Below are positions 29,930 through 49,555 of a DNA stretch of 64,000 nucleotides, one piece after another; position 1 is the stretch's first letter; every line of letters begins with the position of its first letter. The stretch is from NCBI GenBank assembly GCA_977017645.1, contig OZ360231.1, positions 47,802,001 to 47,866,000 on the forward strand, read 5' to 3'. This DNA comes from Torpedo marmorata. Taxonomy: Eukaryota. The notes beneath the pieces were generated by a model, which did not search any database, was not told the origin of the DNA, and worked only from the letters and a program-made list of their open reading frames with translations. A program made the translations under genes and the position numbers.

Positions 29930-32369
29930 CTCTACTCTATATTCCTTGTGGTTCCTCAGCCTCTCCTTCCTAAAATCAACAATTAGCACCTTGGTCTTTG
30001 TGACAGTGAGAGAAAGATTGTTATTCTGGCACCACCCAGCCAGAATCTCAATCTCCATCCTGTATGCTGACTCATCATTATCATTTATTCAGCCAACAAT
30101 GGTGGTGTCATCAGCAAATTTGTAGATTGAGTTGGAGCTGAACTTCGATACGCAGTCGTGGGTGTATAATAGAGTCAGCATGGAGGTGGTGATGTTGCCG
30201 ATCCGCACTGATTGCGGTCTGCCAATGAGGAAGTTCAAGGATCCAGTTGCAGAGGGATGGACAGAGTCCTAGGTCTTTTAGTCTCGCTGGTACAATGGTG
30301 CTAAACAGTGAGCTGCAGTCAACGAACACCAACTTAATGATGGTGTTCCACCTAACTTTCATGTCATTGGCAAACCTGGAAACCTGATCCTCTGACCTTG
30401 CCTCTATTTTATACAAGCCACAATAATTGAGGGAAAGACAGCAAATACATGTGGCAAAAAGTACCGTATGTGGTGAATTTGAGTTGCAGGAAATTTTACA
30501 ATGATGTGACAAGCACGATTGTCTTGTCCGTCAGTGTTTTTTGAGAATCCAGATATTCCTGTAATTGATTATATGAAGTGGCCCTTCTTCCATAAAGATG
30601 CATCAAGATGCTGGATAGCAACAAAAAAAAATGAAAAGCCCAGAACATTGGGTACAGGTTTGGTCCACATCAAAAAAAAAAGGATAAACTTGCCATAAAA
30701 GTTCATCAGACCAAAGTCTGAAAAGTTTGTATTGATTCTGGCAATATTCATCAGAGTTCAGAACAACAGAATACAATATTATGAAATGTGCCACATTTTA
30801 AACAGGGTACAGCTGTAAAAGTTGCTGTCTTCAGCAACCAGGGAAAATCCTAATCCCTAGTACTACCTATGAAGTCTGCAAGATCTCCCAGTAACCACGT
30901 GGGTTTCCTCCCATATCCCAACGACATGTGCATATTGTTAATTGGCCACTGTAAATTATTCCTAGAGGGGTGGAAATACAATGAGAGATTGCAAATGCTA
31001 GAATCTGGAGCAAAACACAATCTGCTGGAGGAACTCAGTGGTCAAGTGGCATCAAGTGGGAGAAAAAGGTCAAGACCAAGTCTTACCAAAGGGTTCTGAC
31101 CCAAACCATTTTCTCCCAATGATGCTGCTCGACACACTGAGGTCCTCCAGCAGATTGCGTTTTGTTCCTAGATGGTTGTTGAGTGGTAGAATCAGTAGCT
31201 GGGGATAGGTTGATGGGAATGTGGAAAGATTAGTGCAGGATTGCTATTGATAATGCTGGATGATTGTCCGAGATGCAATGAGCCAAAGTGCCTGCTTCCA
31301 TGTTGCACGCCTCTGTGGCTCCACACACTGCATGCAAGGAGGATGCATCTTCTTTGGAAGCAGGGGTCACAGTCTCAACAGATTGCTTTAGGGCTGAGAT
31401 GAGGAGTAATTTCTTCACTAAGAGGGCAATGAAGCTGTGAAATTCTTTACCACGCAAGGGTATGGAAGACAAATTGCTGAAATACTATTAATCAGTGGAT
31501 AGATTTTTAAATACAAAATAGGGTGTGCAGGAATTATAACATTGAGAGACAAGATTAGATTTCATAGTCAAATGACAGAGAGTGTTTGAAGGGCTGAATG
31601 GCCTATTTGTGTTTCCACTTTTCTTTGAACTCAGAGGACTGGTACATCATTACCTACTATATGTCTGACCTGAGGGGGTCTGCTGCTGGCATGGTGTAAG
31701 GATTGCCATAAGAACATAGGAGCAGAAATAGGCTATTCAGCCCATTGAGTCTTCCCTGCCATTTAATCGTGAGCTGATCCATTTTCCCAACAGCCCCACT
31801 GCCTGGCCTTCTCCCCATAACCTTTAATGCCCTGACTAAATCAAGAATCTATCAATCTCTGCCTTCAAATACACCCAATGACCCTGCCTCCACAAAGGCC
31901 TGTGGCAACAAATTCCACAGATTTACCACCCTCTGGCTGAAGAAATTCCTCCGCATCTCTGTTCCAAGTAGACACCCTTCAATCCTGAAGTTGTGCCCTT
32001 TTGTCCTAGACTCTCCCATCTACTGTCTATGCCTTTCAACATTCTAAATGTTTCAATGAGATCTCTCCCCCCTCCCCCATTCTCCTAAATTCCAACAAAT
32101 GCAGGCCAAGAGCTGTCAAACGCTCCTCATAAGATAACCCTTTCATTTCCGGAATCAACTTTGGGAAACTCCTATGAATCCTCTCCAAAGTCAACACATC
32201 TTTCCTTAAATGAGGCGCCCAAAACTGCTCACAATACTCCAAGTGAGGTCTCACCAGTGCCTTATAAAGCCTCAACATCACATCCTGCTCGTATATTCTA
32301 TTCCTCTTGAAATGAATGCCAGCGTTGCATTTACCTTCTTCACCACTGACTCAACCTGCAAGTTTACCT

Positions 32370-33416
32370 AAAAACCACAAATGCTGGAGAACTCAGCAGG
32401 TCAAACAGTGTCTTTTATGTAGCAAAGGTAGAAATACATAACCGACGTTTCGGGCTTGAGCCCTTCATCAAAGTATGAGAAAATGCCGGCAGGTGTCCGA
32501 ACAAAGGAGTGAGGGGGGAAGGGGGGTGGGAAAGGCAGGAGATGATAGGTGGAGAAAGGAGGGAGGGGACAGCAGCAAAGAGGGGGAGGAGGGATGGCTG
32601 GGTGGGTGGAAAAAAACAGGAAGGACAGGTGAGGGGGGAGGGGAAGGGAACAACAAGCAGGTTTAGTGGAAAGCAGAAAAGTCAATGTTAATGCCATCTG
32701 GCTGGAGAGTGCCGAGACAGAATATGAGATGTTGTTCCTCCGATTTGCGAGTAGTCTGGGTGGGATAGTACATGAGGCCATGGACAGACATGTGAGTGTG
32801 GGAGTGTGACCCAGAATTGAAATGGTTGGCTACTGGGAGGTCGCTGTTGTTGCGGACGGAGAGGAGGTGCTCAGCAAAGCGGTCTCCCAATCTACGACCG
32901 GTCTCTCCAATGTATATAAAGTCACAAAGGGAGCACCCGATGCAGTAAATAAGTCCTCTGGATGTACAAGCCTCATGTACTATCCTACCCAGACTACTCG
33001 CAAATTGGAGGAACAACATCTCATATTCCGTCTCGGCACTCTCCAGCCAGATGGCATTAACATTGACTTTTCTGCTTTCCACTAAACCTGCTTGTTGTTC
33101 CCTTCCCCTCCCCCCTCACCTGTCCTTCCTGTTTTTTTCCACCCACCCAGCCATCCCTCCTCCCGCTCTTTGCTGCTGTCCCCTCCCTCCTTTCTCCACC
33201 TATCATCTCCTGCCTTTCCCACCCCCCTTCCCCCCTCACTCCTTTGTTCGGACGCCTGCCGGCATTTTCTCATACTTTGATGAAGGGCTCAAGCCCGAAA
33301 CGTCGGTTATGTATTTCTACCTTTGCTACATAAAAGACACTGTTTGACCTGCTGAGTTCTCCAGCATTTGTGTTTTTTACTTCATCCACGGTGTCTACAG
33401 ATTTTCGTGTTTACTT
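32370..33416. mobile_element. Palindromic Penelope insertion (two head-to-head 3' ends)
   Basis: Near-perfect ~410-bp inverted arms 32370-32778 and 32970-33378, with a 14-bp TSD CTGCAAGTTTACCT (32356-32369, 33417-33430). Confidence 0.92.
33277..33306 (+). ncRNA. Minimal hammerhead ribozyme-like motif in Penelope tail
   Basis: TTGATGA-A-GGGC TCAA GCCC-GAAACGTC: core boxes around a 4-bp stem II. PLE tails are known to carry minimal hammerheads. Mirror copy at 32442-32471 (minus). Confidence 0.6.
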
Positions 33417-33831
33417 CTGCAAGTTTACCTTCAGGCTATCCTGCACGAGAACTCCCAAGTCCCTTTGCATCTGGGCATTTTCAATTTTCTCCCCATTAAA
33501 AAAAAAATAATCTGACCATTTATTTTTTCTACCAAAGTGCAAGACTGTATTTCATTTGCAACTTCTCTGCCCATTCTCCTAATCTGTCTTAAATCCATCT
33601 GCAGCCTCTGTTTCTTCAACACTACCTGCTCCTCCACCTACCTTTGTATCATCTGCAAACTTGGCCACAAAGCCATTCATTCCATAATCCAAATAATTGA
33701 TATACAAGGTAAAAAGAAGCTGCCCCAACACCAACCCCTGTGGTTCACCACTAACAACTGGCAGCTAACCAGAAGATGATTCCTGCCAATCAACCAATGC
33801 TCTACCAACGATAGTATGTTTTCTGATATAG

Positions 33832-34205
33832 CAGTGGTTTTCAAACTGCCCCCCTAAACTCACATTCCACCTTAAGCAATCCCTATGCCATAAGTGCTCT
33901 GTGATTGGTAAGGGATTGCTTAAGGTGGTATGTGAGTGGGAAGGGAAGGTTGAGAACCACTGCTCTAAAGCCAATTGTTACTGAAATATTTTGCTTGAGA
34001 AAAATCGTCATTGCCCATTTCCTTTGGAGTTATGAAACCGTGCACATAACGAGTCAATTAGGTACGATGAAAACAGTGGTTTTCAAACTTTTTCTTCCCA
34101 CTCACATACCACCATAAGCAATCCCTTACTAATCACAGAGCACTTATGGCATAGGGATTGCTTAAAGTGGAATGTGAGTTTAGGGGGGCAGTTTGAAAAC
34201 TGCTG
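33832..34205. mobile_element. Dimeric hAT (Charlie-like) MITE
   Basis: CAGTGGTTTTCAAAC termini and two ~130-bp inverted units around a ~110-bp spacer. Same structure at 62289-62634. Confidence 0.85.
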
Positions 34206-34372
34206 TTATAGCATGGGCTCTTGTCCTGTTAAGTAGCCTCATGTACAGCACTTTGTCAAAGACCTTCTGAAAAACCAAATACACAACATCCACTGCATCT
34301 CCTTTATCTAGCCTGCTTGTCACTTCTTCAAAGAATTTCAATGGGTTGGTCAAGCAAGGTTTTCCCTTAAGG

Positions 34373-34464
34373 CAGTGGTTCTCAACCTATGTCATTGGTG
34401 CTCTGTGGTTTGTAAGGGATTACTTAAGGTGGTATGAGTAAAAAAAAAAGGTTGAGAACCACAG
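34373..34464. mobile_element. Monomeric hAT MITE related to the dimer unit
   Basis: CAGTGGTTCTCAACC...GGTTGAGAACCACAG with TSD CCTTAAGG/CGTTAAGG. Confidence 0.75.
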
Positions 34465-34995
34465 CGTTAAGGAAACCATGCTGGCTTTGGCCTATCTTGT
34501 CATGTGCCTCCAAATACTCCGTAACTTCATTCTTGAAAATCGACTCCAACATCTTCCCAACCACTGACGTCAGGCTAACCGGTCTATAATTTCCTTTCTA
34601 CTGCCTCCCTCCCTTCTAGATTAGTGGGGTGATATTTGTGATTTTCAGTCCTCCAGGACCATACCAGAATCTATGGATTCCTGAAATATTACCAATGCCT
34701 CCACAATCGAGGGTGTAATCCATCTGGTCCAGGAGACTTATCTACTCTTAGACCATTCAGCTTTCTGAGCACCTTCTCCCTTGAAATAGTAACTGCATCC
34801 ACTTCTCTTCCCTGATATCCTTTGACATCTGGCACACTGCCAGTGTCTTCCATAGTGAACACTAATGCAAAGTACTCAGTTAGTTTCTCTGCCATCTCCT
34901 TGTCTCCCATTATTATAGACAATAGAAGCTGGAGTAGGCCCTTCGGCCCGTCAAGCCAGCACCGCCATTTTACAGATCATGGCTGATCACTACTA

Positions 34996-37929
34996 TCAGT
35001 ACACCTTTCCAACCTTATCCCCATAACCCTTAACTCCCCTGCCCACTAGAGTCTTATCTAACTCTCTTTTGAACATAATCAGCGAATCTGCCTCTACCAC
35101 CCTCTGTGGCAAAGCATTCCACAGATTCACTCTTCTCTGGGTAAAAAATTTTTTACTCATCTCCGTCCTAAAGGGCCTTCCCTGTATTCTTAAACTATGC
35201 CCTCTAGTCCTCGTCTCTCCCATCATTGGGAACAAGTAATCTGATTCCACCCTGTCTATCCCCTTGATAATCTTGTATACCTCAATCATGTCCCCCCTCA
35301 TCCTTCTAAACTCCATCGGATATAAGCCCAGTTTTTCTAACCTTTCAGCATACGTCAATCCTGCCATCCCGGGAACTAACCTTGTAAATCTGAGCTGCAC
35401 ACCCTCAATAGCTAGTATGTCCTTCCTCAAATTTGGGGAGCAGAACTGGACGCAATACTCCAGGTGAGGTCTCACCAAGGCCCTGTACAACTGCAGGAGG
35501 GCATCTCTGCTCCTATACTCCAATCCCCTCTTTATGAAAGCCAACATACCATTTGCCTTCTTCACAGCTTTATGAACCTGCATGTTAGCCTTCAGTGACT
35601 GGAGTACAAGTACACCCAGATCCATTTGCACTTCCCCACTCCCTAGCTTGTCTCCATTTAAATAATACTCAGCTTTCCTATTACTGCCCCCAAAATGGAT
35701 AACCTCACATTTGCTCACATTGAACTTCATCTTCCATTCCTCAGCCCACTCCCCCAACCTGTCCAAGTCCCTCTGCATTTTCCTGACATCCTCCTCACAC
35801 TTTACACCGCCACCCAATTTAGTGTCGTCTGCACATTTGCTCATGTTATTAATAATCCCTTCATCCAAATCATTTACATAAATGATAAACAACTGAGGAC
35901 CCAACACCGATCCCTGCGGCACTCCACTTGTCACATCCTGCCATCCTGAAAATGACCCGCTTATCCCAACCCTTTATTTCCTATTTCTTAACCAATTTCC
36001 TATCCATGTCAGCACCTTACCTCCAATACCATGCTCCCTGATCTTGCCCACTAGTCTCTTGTGCGGGACCTTATCAAAGCCCTTCTGGAAGTCCAAATAC
36101 ACCACATCCACTGGCTCTCCCAAGTCCACCCTCTTTGAAAAATTCCAGAAGGTTAGTCAAGCATGATTTACCCTTAAGGAATCCATGCTGACTAGCCCCT
36201 ATACTATTACTTCTGCCTAAGTGTTCTGCTGTTACTCCTTTTATGATAGATTCCAATATCTTCCCCACCACTGACGTCAGGCTGACCGGTCTATAATTTC
36301 CTGTTTTCTCCCTCCCTTCTTAAAAAGCAGCACCACATCAGCCACTCTCCAATCCACAGGGACCTCTCCCGAATCTATGGAACTTTGGAAAATGTCGAAC
36401 AGTGCCTCCACAATTTCCAGAGCAACCTCTTTAAGCACCTTGGGATGCAGCCCATCAGGCCCTGGGGATTTATCAGCCCTCAGTCCCAACAATTTACTCA
36501 CAACCTCCTGCTTCTGGATCTGGATATCCATCAGATTCCCTACTTCCCTAGGAAAGTTCCCCAAGTCTCTTGATACTGCATGACCACTACCCCCTAACTG
36601 ACCATAACCTATATCCTCCTTGGTGAAGACAGATGCAAAGTATCTGTTAAATTCCTCAGCCATTTCCTTGTTTCCAGTAATAATTTCACACTTTTCCATT
36701 TTTAATGGCCCAATTTTAGTCCGAACCAATTTCTTCTTCACATATCTAAAAAAGCTTTTGCTATCCTCTATTATATTATTTGCTAATTTCCTCTCGTACT
36801 TCATTTTTCCCTCTCGTATGACTTTCTTAGTTACCCTCTGATGTTTTTTGAAGGTTTCCCAATCCTCTAACTTCCCACTCTGCTTCGCTATCTTATACTT
36901 ACTCCCTTTGGACTTGATATTGCACTTGATTTCGTTAGTTATCCACGGCTGCCATTTGCATCTCCTAGAGCCTTTCCTCCACTTTGGAATGAATTTGTCC
37001 TGAATCCTGAGAAAAATGCCCATAAATACCTGCCATTTTTCCCCAGTTGTCCTCCCAGCTAGGGTATCTTTCCATTTTATTTTGGCTAGCTCCTCCCTCG
37101 TAGCTGCATAATCCCCTTTATTTAACTGCAGTACTGATGCTTCCAACTTCCTTTCTTTTTCCCTTTCCATTTGCAGATTAAAAGTAACCATACTATGGTC
37201 ACTATTCCCTAATGGCACCCCTACTTCGAGGTCACTTATTAACTCTGCATCGCTGCACAGCACCAAGTCCAGAATCGACTTCCCCCTGGTAGGTTCCTCC
37301 ACTAGCTGCTCCAAGAATGTATCTCGGAGACATTCTATAAACTCACTCTCTTGCTTTCCTGCCCCCGCCTGATTTTCCCAGTCCACCTTCAAGTCCCCCA
37401 TAACTACCGTATTGCTACCACTTTGACATGCCACTCTTAATTCTTGATTTATACTACTTCCTATATCTGAGCTACTTTTTGGAGGCCTGTAAATGACCCC
37501 CATTATGGTCTTCATGTCTTTGCAATTTCTTAATTTTATCCAAACAGACTCTACCCCACCTGTTTCAATGTATTTCCTTTCAAACGCCTGAATTTCATTT
37601 CTTACCAACAGAGCTACCCCACCTCCTCTTCCTAACTTTCTGTCCTTTCTATAGGACGTGTACCCTGGAACATTTATTTCCCAATCCTGCCCCTCCTGCA
37701 GCCATGTCTCTGTTACTCCGATAATGTCATAACCTCCTATTGCCATTTGCGCTTCAAGCTCATTCATTTTATTCCTTACACTCTGTGCATTCATATACAA
37801 TACCTTGATACCATACCTCCCTTCTCCCTCCACCTTTGTTCCTGATGCACCCGCCCCTACTCTCCTATCCCTTTTTGTTCCCTTTTTCCTTATGGTTTCA
37901 CCGTCTATCGGAACCACCCCTATATTCAC
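34996..37929 (-). pseudogene. CR1 ORF2 (AP endonuclease + reverse transcriptase), frameshifted
   Basis: IIGVTETWL, GGGVALLV, GVIYRPP, LGNSDH, KSPGPDG, QHGFLKGKSCLTNL, GVPQGSVLGP and CADD, split over three ORFs. Confidence 0.92.
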
Positions 37930-46629: not shown

Positions 46630-46819
46630 CTGAACAAATAAAATTAACAAGAATCATTTAATAAGTAGCAGGAAGAATTTGCAACCTGTTAATCACATTC
46701 CTAATTGATCACTATGGTTTAATCAGATCTTAATTAAACATTCACACTTCATTCCTTCTCTATTACATGAAGTTCAACTGGAATATACCTAGGTTTGCTC
46801 ACAAGATATAGTTTGCAAA

Positions 46820-48340
46820 AGTAAAACACGAGAATCTATAGACACCGTGGTTGAAGTAAAAAACACAAATGCTGGAGAAACTCAGCAGGTCAAAGAGTGT
46901 CTTTTATGTAGCAAAGGTAGAAATACATAACTGACGTTTTGGGCTTGAGCCCTTCATCAAAGTATGAGAAAATGCCGGCAGGCGTCCGAACAAAAGAGTG
47001 AGGTGGGAAGGGGGGTGGAAAAGGCAGGAGATAATAGGTGGAGAAAGGAGGGAGGGGACAGCAGCAAAGAGGGGGAGGAGGGATGGCTGGGTAGGTGGAG
47101 AAAAGCAGGAAGGACAGGTGAGGGGGGAGGGGAAGGGAACGACAAGCAGGTTAGTGGAAAGCAGAAAAGTCAATGTTAATGCCATCTGGCTGGAGAGTGC
47201 TGAGACGGAAAATGAGATGTTGTTCCTCCAATTTGCGGGTAGTCTGGGTGGGATAGTACATAAGGCCATGGACAGACATGTGGGTGTGGGAGTGTGACCC
47301 GGATTTGAAATGGTTGGCTACTGGGAGGTTGCTGTTGTTGCGGACGGAGAGGAGGTGCTCAGCAAAGCGGTCTCCCAATCTACGACCGGTCTCTCCGATG
47401 TAGAGAAAGCCACAAAGGGAGCACCGGATGCAGTAAATAAGTTCTCTGGATGTACAAGTGAAGTGCAGTTTCACTTGGAAGGCCTGTTTGGGGCCCTGGA
47501 CCGTGGTGAGGGGGGAGGTGTGGGCGCAGGTGTTGCACCTCCTGCGGGCACAGGGGAAGGTGCCGGGGGTGCGATGGGTGGGGAGGGATGAGTGCACGAG
47601 TGAATCGCGGAGGGAGCGGTCCCTACGGAGGGCCGAGAGGGGAGGAGAAGGAAAACTGTGTCTAGTGGTGGGATCCTGTAGTAAGTGCCGGAAATTCCGG
47701 CGGATAATGTGTTGGATGCGGAGGCTGGTGGGGTGGTAGGTGAGGATGAGGGGGATTCTATGTTTGTTGTGTCTGGGGGCAGAGTGGGCCAGGGCAGATG
47801 AGCGGGAAATGGAGGAGATGCGGGTGAGGGCTGAGTTGATGGTGGTGGAGGGGAAGCCACGTTTGTGGAAAAAGGCAGACATTTCAGAAGATCTGGACTG
47901 GAACACCTCATCTTGGGAACAGATGCGGCGGAGGCGGAGAAATTGAGAGAAGGGGATGGAATCCTTGCAGGGGACAGGGTATGAGGAAGTGTAGTCCAGA
48001 TAGTTGTGGGAGTTGGAGGGTTTGTTGTAAATGTCAGTGGAAAGCTTGTCTCCTGAGATGGAGACAGAGAGATCCAGGAAGGGGAGAGTGTTATCGGAGA
48101 TGGACCAGGTGAGTTTGAGATCGGGGTGGAAGTTGGATGCGAAGTGGATGAAGTTGACAAGCTCATCGCGGGTGCATGTGGCAGCCCCGATGTAGTCATC
48201 GATATAACGGAGGAAGAGATGAGGGGTCTTGCCTGTGTAGGCTTGCAGCATGGATTGCTCCACAAAGCCCACAAACAGGCAGGCGTAGCTGGGACCCATG
48301 CGGGTACCCATGGCTACTCCTTTGATTTGGAGGAAGTGGG
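46820..48340 (-). mobile_element. Young 5'-truncated Penelope-like element (Neptune-like) in the last traf3ip2l intron
   Basis: 12-bp TSD ATAGTTTGCAAA (46808-46819, 48341-48352), an uninterrupted reading frame and a complete tail. Confidence 0.93.
47151..48340 (-). CDS. Penelope RT C-terminal half + Cys-rich linker + GIY-YIG endonuclease (open, 5'-truncated)
   Basis: GVAMGTRMGPSYA, RYIDDY, CARRRCNTC and LIYCIRCSLCGFLYIGETGRRLGDRFAEH. Confidence 0.88.
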
Positions 48341-49349
48341 ATAGTTTGCAAATGGAAATGCACAATTACATAAATCCTTGATTACATTTGAATTTAGAAC
48401 AACTGACTACAGAATCAACCTCTGGCATTACAGTCAGTCAACTCTCATCAGTCACAATTCCACTGCAAACTTCCAGCAGTGTGCCCACTAATATTCTGCC
48501 CACCTAACAGCTCCCTCATTCACTCCCCAAAGCAGCACATTATTAATCAATGCTTCAAGCTAAATCTACCCTTCTTTAAGTAAATGTCATCCAAGTACAA
48601 ATTTGGATTTTGATTTCCCATATTCTTTTCCTCTAAACACACTCAAGACACATCTCCTAAATTTCCCACACCTATGACAATTGAATTTCTTGTCCTTGGA
48701 AGTATCGGATTTCCACCACAAATGCAAATTGTTGCTGACCTGCAGACCAATTACTGCCATCTCCTCCTCTTCCCCCAACCCCCCACACCTGCCACATACT
48801 GTACCATCTACTTCTCTGCTATGCTCTTTCATTCTTGTACACCCTCAGCCTCTCCTTCGAATCAAGCTACACACTCATTTATCTCAAACACCCTTTTCTG
48901 TCACCTTGTACTCTCCTCAGAATTCACAGTCCTCTTTAAACACTTCACCTATCTTCACTCGATGTTAATAGTTACCTGTTCCAAGAGAAGATTATCACTA
49001 GCCACATAGCCTGCAACTGTCCTCTCAGGTCCTGATCCACCTTGGTCTTCTCTCACGCATCCTTCTTTTTAACTCTCCTGTTACCCAGTTTCTTTCCCCT
49101 TCCCAACCTGGTCCCATCTGCCCACCCTCCCTCTGTTACCTGGCTCCACCCATCACCTTCTTTTCTTATCAGTTTCATAATCTGCTGTCCTTTGTTATCT
49201 CCACTTATCACCTCCCAGCCCTTACAACAATCTCCACCCTTCCCTTCTCCACACAGCTCCATCTGCATTTCAACTGCTCCTTATATGGGTCCACATAACT
49301 TGCCAGCTCCTGCCTCACCGTCTGCCCTCCTCACCTCTTTACAATGGCT

Positions 49350-49555
49350 CAAACAGTGTCTTTTATGTAGCAAAAGTAGAAATACATAACCGACGTTTCG
49401 GGCTTGAGCCCTTCATCAAAGTATCAAGCCCGAAACGTCGGTTATGTATTTCTACTTTTGCTACATAAAAGACACTGTTTGACCTGCTGAGTTTCTCCAG
49501 CATGTGTTTTTTACTTCAACCACGGTGTCTACAGATTTTCGTGTTTTACTTTTCA
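49350..49555. mobile_element. Mini palindromic Penelope tail insertion inside an older Penelope tail
   Basis: Perfect 59-bp arms 49349-49407 and 49424-49482, with an 11-bp TSD TTACAATGGCT (49339-49349, 49556-49566). Confidence 0.9.

Follow-up and report, generated by a model that had tools for sequence, protein, structure and literature searches.

A 1-kb palindrome in Torpedo marmorata is one insertion of two back-to-back Penelope-like element copies: a proposed origin by priming on both target strands

The window analyzed here is a 64,000-nucleotide (nt) stretch of the Torpedo marmorata genome (assembly GCA_977017645.1, contig OZ360231.1, positions 47,802,001 to 47,866,000 of the forward strand). 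It contains a 1-kb palindrome that is real and is a single insertion, in which two shortened copies of a Penelope-like element (PLE) lie back to back. The locus is established to have a single target-site duplication (TSD), arms from one source subfamily, a tail at one end and none at the other, and a junction unique to the site. The origin that we consider probable is double target-primed reverse transcription, with the two strands of a staggered cut serving as primers for one copy apiece, at the two known start sites of the reverse transcriptase (RT). Papers are cited by PMC number. The insertion and its host, a long interspersed nuclear element (LINE), are laid out as follows in window positions.

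32356..32369, plus strand: left copy of the 14-bp TSD, an exact direct repeat
32370..32969, minus strand: long arm, a 600-nt 5'-truncated PLE copy with no tail, ending at the proximal site
32779..32969, minus strand: 191-nt spacer, a GIY-YIG/CCHH coding segment, the portion of the long arm without a partner
32969..32970, no strand: inversion junction with 1-nt microhomology and no filler
32970..33416, plus strand: short arm, a 447-nt 5'-truncated PLE copy with a tail, ending at the distal site
33380..33416, plus strand: 37-nt PLE tail, on the short arm only (tail as defined in PMC8557442 and PMC11167929)
33277..33304, plus strand: minimal hammerhead-like motif, called from sequence, with stem II and palindromic GAAACGTC
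32444..32471, minus strand: mirror hammerhead-like motif in the long arm, called from sequence
33417..33430, plus strand: right copy of the TSD, an exact match of the left copy
31852..32355, minus strand: host CR1/L2-type LINE, portion downstream of the insertion, aligning with paralogues across the site
33431..33764, minus strand: host CR1/L2-type LINE, portion upstream of the insertion, with RT C-terminal motifs and Pfam RVT_1 on 33582-33764

The inverted arms (32369-32778 against 32970-33379) are 410 nt long, 99% complementary and 191 nt apart, with 6 substitutions over 409 aligned nt, which bears out the near-identical arms of about 410 bp described in an earlier sequence-only reading of this DNA. 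That reading also took the 191-nt spacer to be the longer copy's GIY-YIG segment, and rightly so: the spacer is the 5' continuation of the minus-strand copy, its translation and a weak PF01541 match both give the GIY-YIG region, and it is 98-99% identical to dispersed family copies. Beyond the spacer region, which holds the end of the GIY-YIG endonuclease (EN) coding sequence, the long arm carries the 3' untranslated region and the hammerhead-like motif. The proposed single 14-bp TSD around the whole insert is an exact repeat, and no inner TSD is present. Two details of the reading needed correction. It described two head-to-head 3' ends at the join, whereas the joined ends are the 5'-truncated ones and the 3' ends face outwards, and it overlooked the 37-nt tail of the short arm. 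An imperfect 9-bp hairpin is seen in the sequence across the junction and may be a chance feature.

A single insertion from one Penelope-like family, as the reading had it, is upheld by the single TSD, by an empty site in paralogues and by six non-majority variants common to both arms. In each of the 14 paralogues of the host LINE that were fetched, the sequence runs uninterrupted through the site and the 14-mer occurs once, exactly in 11 and with one change in 3. They also confirm that the host LINE continues on both sides of the insert. One frame of this LINE reads through the empty site, and RVT_1 matches 33582-33764 at E=0.0031; its label as CR1 or L2 is provisional and comes from sequence motifs. 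The junction occurs once in the 6.2-Gb genome in a search allowing up to one mismatch. A miniature inverted-repeat transposable element (MITE) or fold-back DNA transposon was rejected on this uniqueness and on the termini, which are asymmetric retroelement 3' ends. A palindromic master copy spreading through the genome is ruled out for this locus by its unique junction, and also for another pair, L214.

By its sequence features, the element belongs to a young and very abundant endonuclease-bearing (EN+) PLE family that appears Neptune-like by its linker. PF01541 (GIY-YIG) matches the window piece at E=0.0018, a score under the curated cut-off that reflects the truncation of the piece, and the endonuclease frame terminates at the family stop codon. 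The spacer translation reads LIYCIGCSLCDFIYIG, then RFAEH and ANHF, which gives a CCHH motif whose two cysteines lie between GIY and YIG, a feature of EN+ PLEs (PMC8557442). The truncated locus lacks the RT; the RT-then-EN order is seen in L123, a near-full sister copy with a 980-amino-acid (aa) open stretch (RVT_1 E=9.8e-7) followed by EN after one frameshift. The linker CARRRCNTC (CX4CxxC) is found in L123 and in a further window copy at 46.8-48.3 kb, and a CX2-5CxxC linker between RT and EN is a Neptune/Nematis feature (PMC8557442). Another copy, L121, has a direct pseudo-long terminal repeat (pLTR) at its 5' end, and the tail of this pLTR continues into a leader of about 1.1 kb (~5330-4190 of L121) and then the open reading frame (ORF). 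The last 40 nt of this leader also directly precede 5'-truncated copies in L073 and L124, which suggests that these two are internally deleted derivatives. The 3' ends of the family fall into two classes about 40 nt apart.

The locus is ordinary for its family, and its architecture is already known, because PMC8557442, PMC3846280 and PMC4209133 describe such arrangements. The rarity implied by the sequence-only reading is not supported, since the arrangement has been published and this genome holds thousands of cases. A 29-mer taken from the element's 3' end has 80,117 exact genome matches, and among the first 100 on the contig here called C1, adjacent pairs within 5 kb comprise 17 head-to-head and 0 tail-to-tail, with about 2 expected per orientation. 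Genome-wide counts, which cover short exact-motif pairs and in which complex loci may match repeatedly, gave 3,974 head-to-head matches (gap 60-260) against 84 tail-to-tail (gap 10-260). Counted separately, a tail on one arm gave 2,997 matches and tails on both arms 67 loci (134 matches). The window itself holds a second small head-to-head pair of the family at 49349-49551, with a 14-bp TSD carrying one mismatch and a non-tailed arm that ends about 30 nt before the usual site. It also holds a single tailed, 5'-truncated copy at 46819-48346 (RT C-terminus plus EN, 95% identical to the locus element, 12-bp TSD).

Inverted pairs were surveyed in 79 regions covering the first 100 C1 matches, in 80 further short-pair regions and at loci from searches. 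The first pass yielded 115 non-redundant inverted structures, in a set that mixes loci chosen for one tail with loci chosen for two: 99 pair a tailed with a tail-less arm, 5 have both arms tailed, 1 has both tail-less, 1 has a partial tail and 9 have one end that could not be called. Two subsets collected blind to the tail contain 60 structures. Both ends are callable in 53 (one end is not in the other 7), and these comprise 50 tailed/tail-less pairs and one each of partial-tail/tail-less, both tailed and both tail-less. Single, unpaired ends are tailed in 27 cases and tail-less in 21, so about half of pairs should be mixed if arm ends were independent.

The TSDs of pairs are sharply bounded. 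Among the 99 mixed pairs, 46 have exactly 14 bp (the mode), 39 have 15-18 bp, 12 have fewer and 2 have none; 85 of the 99 thus have at least 14 bp, as do 34 of 38 new pairs. Lengths of 15-18 bp would be expected from chance extension or microhomology. For 48 single ends the TSD is at least 14 bp in 3, 9-13 bp in 11, 7-8 bp in 6 and absent in 28; broken alignments inflate the last class. A target bias with two-fold symmetry is seen at the 46 sites whose TSD is 14 bp: A at -7 (28), A at -3 (31), T at +3 (28) and T at +7 (28). L067 and L085 are two copies of a single complex PLE pair. They agree in TSD and flank and represent a segmental duplication next to a tandem array, distinct from the twin centers described below.

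The two arms of a pair share subfamily variants at some sites, and either arm may be the longer. Variants at three sites are shared between arms in 10 of 10, 4 of 4 and 27 of 33 cases (11.6 expected), and divergence is 2.0% within a pair against 3.4% across insertions. In 120 simple pairs, the arm reaching further 5' is the tail-less one in 50 and the tailed one in 24, while the arms end within 10 nt of each other in 46; the positional sample gives 9, 9 and 6 for the same classes, and the excess reaches 2,153 nt. Junctions were resolved in 61 of 87 cases, 36 filler-free and 25 with filler. Microhomology of at least 2 nt occurs at 22 of the 36 filler-free joins (null 15%). Two fillers have an inverted match in their own flank: a 27-nt filler in L300 (at 1501; match at ~1032, about 0.5 kb away) and a 15-nt filler in L095 (787-802; match at 4695, about 3.9 kb away). 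They look like those left by templated end-joining. Overlap of the outer junction with the TSD by at least 1 nt (68 of 89 tail-less ends, 45 of 90 tailed ends) is not used as evidence because fold-back predicts it too.

The geometry of the locus pairs each arm with one target 3' end, from which its cDNA would have been extended. In double target-primed reverse transcription, the RT-endonuclease, probably dimeric, would make one nick in each strand, with a 14-nt stagger. The 3' end at one nick would begin cDNA at the distal site and give the tailed arm, and that at the other would begin at the proximal site, about 37-40 nt upstream, and give the tail-less arm. The templates may be the same RNA or two RNAs of one source. 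Both cDNAs would end early, and host end-joining would fuse them by short microhomology or filler; the insertion is a dead end. In vitro, a purified anole PLE enzyme cuts and extends both strands, initiating at two sites that mark the limits of the tail. It is a predicted dimer and works without hammerhead cleavage (PMC11167929). The sequence-only reading had both strands of the cut priming reverse transcription near the RNA 3' end. The priming of both strands is favored by the survey and by these in vitro data, still as an inference; the single start region is not, because each strand has its own start site and the two are separated by about 37-40 nt. The pair counts (one tail, a fixed 14-bp stagger, either arm longer, one source) connect published two-start-site biochemistry with the genomic layout, and PMC8557442 states that the way in which PLEs make inverted copies is unresolved.

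Several points weigh against this account. The anole enzyme uses start sites that are alike on both strands in vitro (PMC11167929), support for double priming in the present family is genomic, and the coupling of start site to strand is inferred from genomes alone. Literature searches found no paper stating such coupling, with most subscription journals outside their coverage. The many single copies show that double priming is not obligatory, and the 46 near-equal pairs are compatible with fold-back as well. The survey sample comes almost wholly from one contig and consists mostly of short pairs, the no-TSD class of single ends is inflated as noted, and 3 of 10 both-tailed loci fetched are simple two-arm pairs. 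At 15 new sites only the T side of the target bias was replicated (T at +3 in 10 and at +7 in 10, A at -7 in 6 and at -3 in 7), and the locus itself departs from it, with A at +3 of its target. At some sites the arms agree poorly (3 of 14, 4 of 8), and arm-to-arm conversion could have raised the concordance.

An unlikely but serious alternative is a pre-formed, double-stranded palindromic cDNA, self-primed on an antisense template as proposed in PMC3846280, which the endonuclease would cut at two sites and integrate, the tail being a resolution product in the wording of PMC8557442. It would account for the strict one-tail asymmetry and the fixed TSD, both end sites carry a similar motif, and a near-perfect hairpin junction beside the hammerhead core recurs in 4 of 120 pairs. 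It fits poorly with spacers that belong to one arm and reach 2-3 kb, with junctions that are mostly unique and bear microhomology or filler, and with in vitro RT start sites that coincide with the tail ends (PMC11167929). The 27-nt and 15-nt fillers copied from the pairs' own flanks favor joining at the target.

Fold-back after single priming, with the first cDNA copying itself into the second arm, is considerably less credible. It could explain the microhomology at junctions and the coincidence of arm 5' ends, which lie at most 3 nt apart in 26 of 120 pairs, where 5,000 permutations predict 7.3 and never exceed 17. At the locus and in 50 of 120 pairs, however, the spacer-bearing arm is tail-less and the other arm tailed. 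Plain fold-back is excluded at the locus and in those 50 pairs because the tail-less arm is the longer one and a copy cannot hold 3' sequence that its template lacks; at the locus it would need a tail trimmed from the primed end, and it may hold for some of the near-equal pairs. Independent insertion of the two arms at one site, or inversion by later recombination, is highly improbable: the family is dense enough for chance neighbors, as the 84 tail-to-tail matches show, but the locus has one outer TSD, no inner TSD and six shared non-majority variants, and the early C1 matches have 17 head-to-head and no tail-to-tail neighbors. An assembly or library fold-back artefact is the least credible of all, since the arms, although known here from the assembly alone, differ at six sites and end at different biological sites, and the TSD is confirmed against paralogues.

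In LINE-1 twin priming, the second target strand primes a second cDNA, producing an inversion within one TSD, microhomology at the join and segments that do not overlap. Under double target-primed reverse transcription both Torpedo cDNAs would instead start in the same end region, so that the arms duplicate each other; L1-type twin priming was rejected as a class because the arms repeat the same 410 nt rather than non-overlapping parts of the RNA. Likenesses also exist among EN+ PLEs. In PMC8557442 a 5'-truncated copy lies inverted next to the 5' end and a 30-40-bp tail is confined to one end, PMC3846280 places such units inside 9-10-bp TSDs with head-to-head as the most frequent arrangement, and PMC4209133 reports opposite-strand hammerhead pairs 100-700 bp apart. 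The EN+ unit (PMC8557442, fig. 2 legend; Pen2a_Av and Pen2 in PMC3846280) thus shares with the locus the inverted 5'-truncated copy, one-end tail, single TSD and head-to-head order. It differs in that both Torpedo copies are short stumps without a direct pLTR, that the tail asymmetry is counted genome-wide in Torpedo, and that Torpedo pairs have TSDs sharply at 14 bp or more, as opposed to variable length (PMC8557442) or 8-10 bp (PMC3846280). Poseidon of Anolis carolinensis, PAc, has a hammerhead upstream of the tail, where the Torpedo family has its hammerhead-like motif, and two RT start sites that delimit the tail (PMC11167929). PAc, whose ORF begins within the hammerhead, is a member of the Penelope/Poseidon clade (PMC11167929), whereas the Torpedo family has the CX4CxxC linker of Neptune/Nematis and, in one long copy, about 1.1 kb between tail and ORF. 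The main text of PMC11167929, in its accessible part, does not link two-strand extension to inverted copies.

Some palindrome centers may have been copied between neighbors. Each of three filler-bearing junctions has exactly two copies in the genome, all on C1, with different 14-bp-type TSDs and unrelated flanks:

L095 and L097, at C1:1975772 and C1:2063306: 88 kb apart
L213 and L215, at C1:40807096 and C1:43526259: 2.7 Mb apart
L302 and L303, at C1:37569498 and C1:36073360: 1.5 Mb apart

The first two twins were noticed within the sample, and the third came from three blind tests, of which the other two (this locus and L214) were negative. L213 and L215 share three center variants found in 0 of 75, 49 and 54 cases in the positional sample. 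The outer ends of L213 carry rare variants without a counterpart in L215 and are of a different subfamily than the center, a pattern that fits copying of the center only. Twin members account for 5 of the 25 filler-bearing pairs in the sample, and a minority of these 25 were searched genome-wide. The twins may be read as local ectopic conversion after a palindrome break or as bridging on a neighbor during integration. Filler-free junctions recurring 10-100 Mb apart are better read as independent use of a hotspot. Close inverted retroelements offer an analogue in yeast, where inverted Ty pairs are mitotic recombination hotspots that start breaks and gene conversion (PMC3616911); the yeast events are allelic crossovers measured experimentally, whereas the Torpedo twins would be ectopic and intrachromosomal and are drawn from three cases. 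Since those three cases lie on one contig, the twin centers are a lead. Literature searches, with most subscription journals outside their coverage, found no paper describing twin centers.

Taken jointly, and only tentatively, coupled two-ended integration (a symmetric dimer, a fixed 14-nt stagger and one start site per strand) would fill the genome with thousands of palindromes, and centers would be overwritten by a same-chromosome neighbor, during integration or after a center break, with at least one fifth of filler junctions having one local twin. If this is true, the family is a genome-wide barcoded record of PLE integration chemistry and of ectopic repair over megabase distances. Were twin centers general, these palindromes would be participants in conversion within chromosomes, with consequences for genome stability and for the dating of repeats in a 6.2-Gb genome.

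The sequence-only reading also expected long read-through double-stranded RNA with a hammerhead-like motif on each strand, an idea that is unsupported here. The motif lies where a hammerhead would be expected in a PLE pLTR. The core has U3 with G8 in both locus arms, rather than the canonical C3-G8 or U3-A8 pair (the U3-A8 variant is described in PMC4209133), and it begins TTGA in 86 of 86 matches to a pattern that left that base's neighbors unfixed. An Rfam scan of 31500-34500 gave no hammerhead match; its six weak microRNA (miRNA) or small nucleolar RNA matches, under the gathering score, all fall on neighboring hairpin repeats. The fold of 33255-33430 has a z of -0.86, and the hammerhead fold is not its minimum-energy state. 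In the full hairpin of a transcript spanning both arms, the motif would be base-paired to its own antisense. Hammerhead cleavage as the source of arm 5' ends was rejected because their pile-up lies off the cut site: in the sample, which was selected for short pairs, the 10-nt bin immediately 5' of the core holds 53 of 240 arm 5' ends, and the bin with the canonical cut site holds 10. The hotspot lies at 3430-3439 of the L123 reference (equivalent to window 33266-33277). It holds an initiator-like (Inr-like) sequence and is a candidate transcript start. Both cDNAs may terminate by runoff at one and the same RNA 5' end.

The hairpin repeats behind the weak Rfam miRNA matches are three short MITE-like elements in the same host LINE (33824-33970, 34070-34213 and 34362-34475), two of them mutually inverted (128 nt, 92%). 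A small inverted pair at 31007-31168 (34 nt, 91%) is formed by an older related repeat end. Older PLE relatives, 72-80% identical to the locus element, lie at ~1.4-4.2, 12.4-13.1, 15.1-15.2 and 21.4-22.0 kb of the window, and a further minus-strand LINE copy at 34996-35973 retains a 325-aa open RT stretch (RVT_1 E=4e-11).

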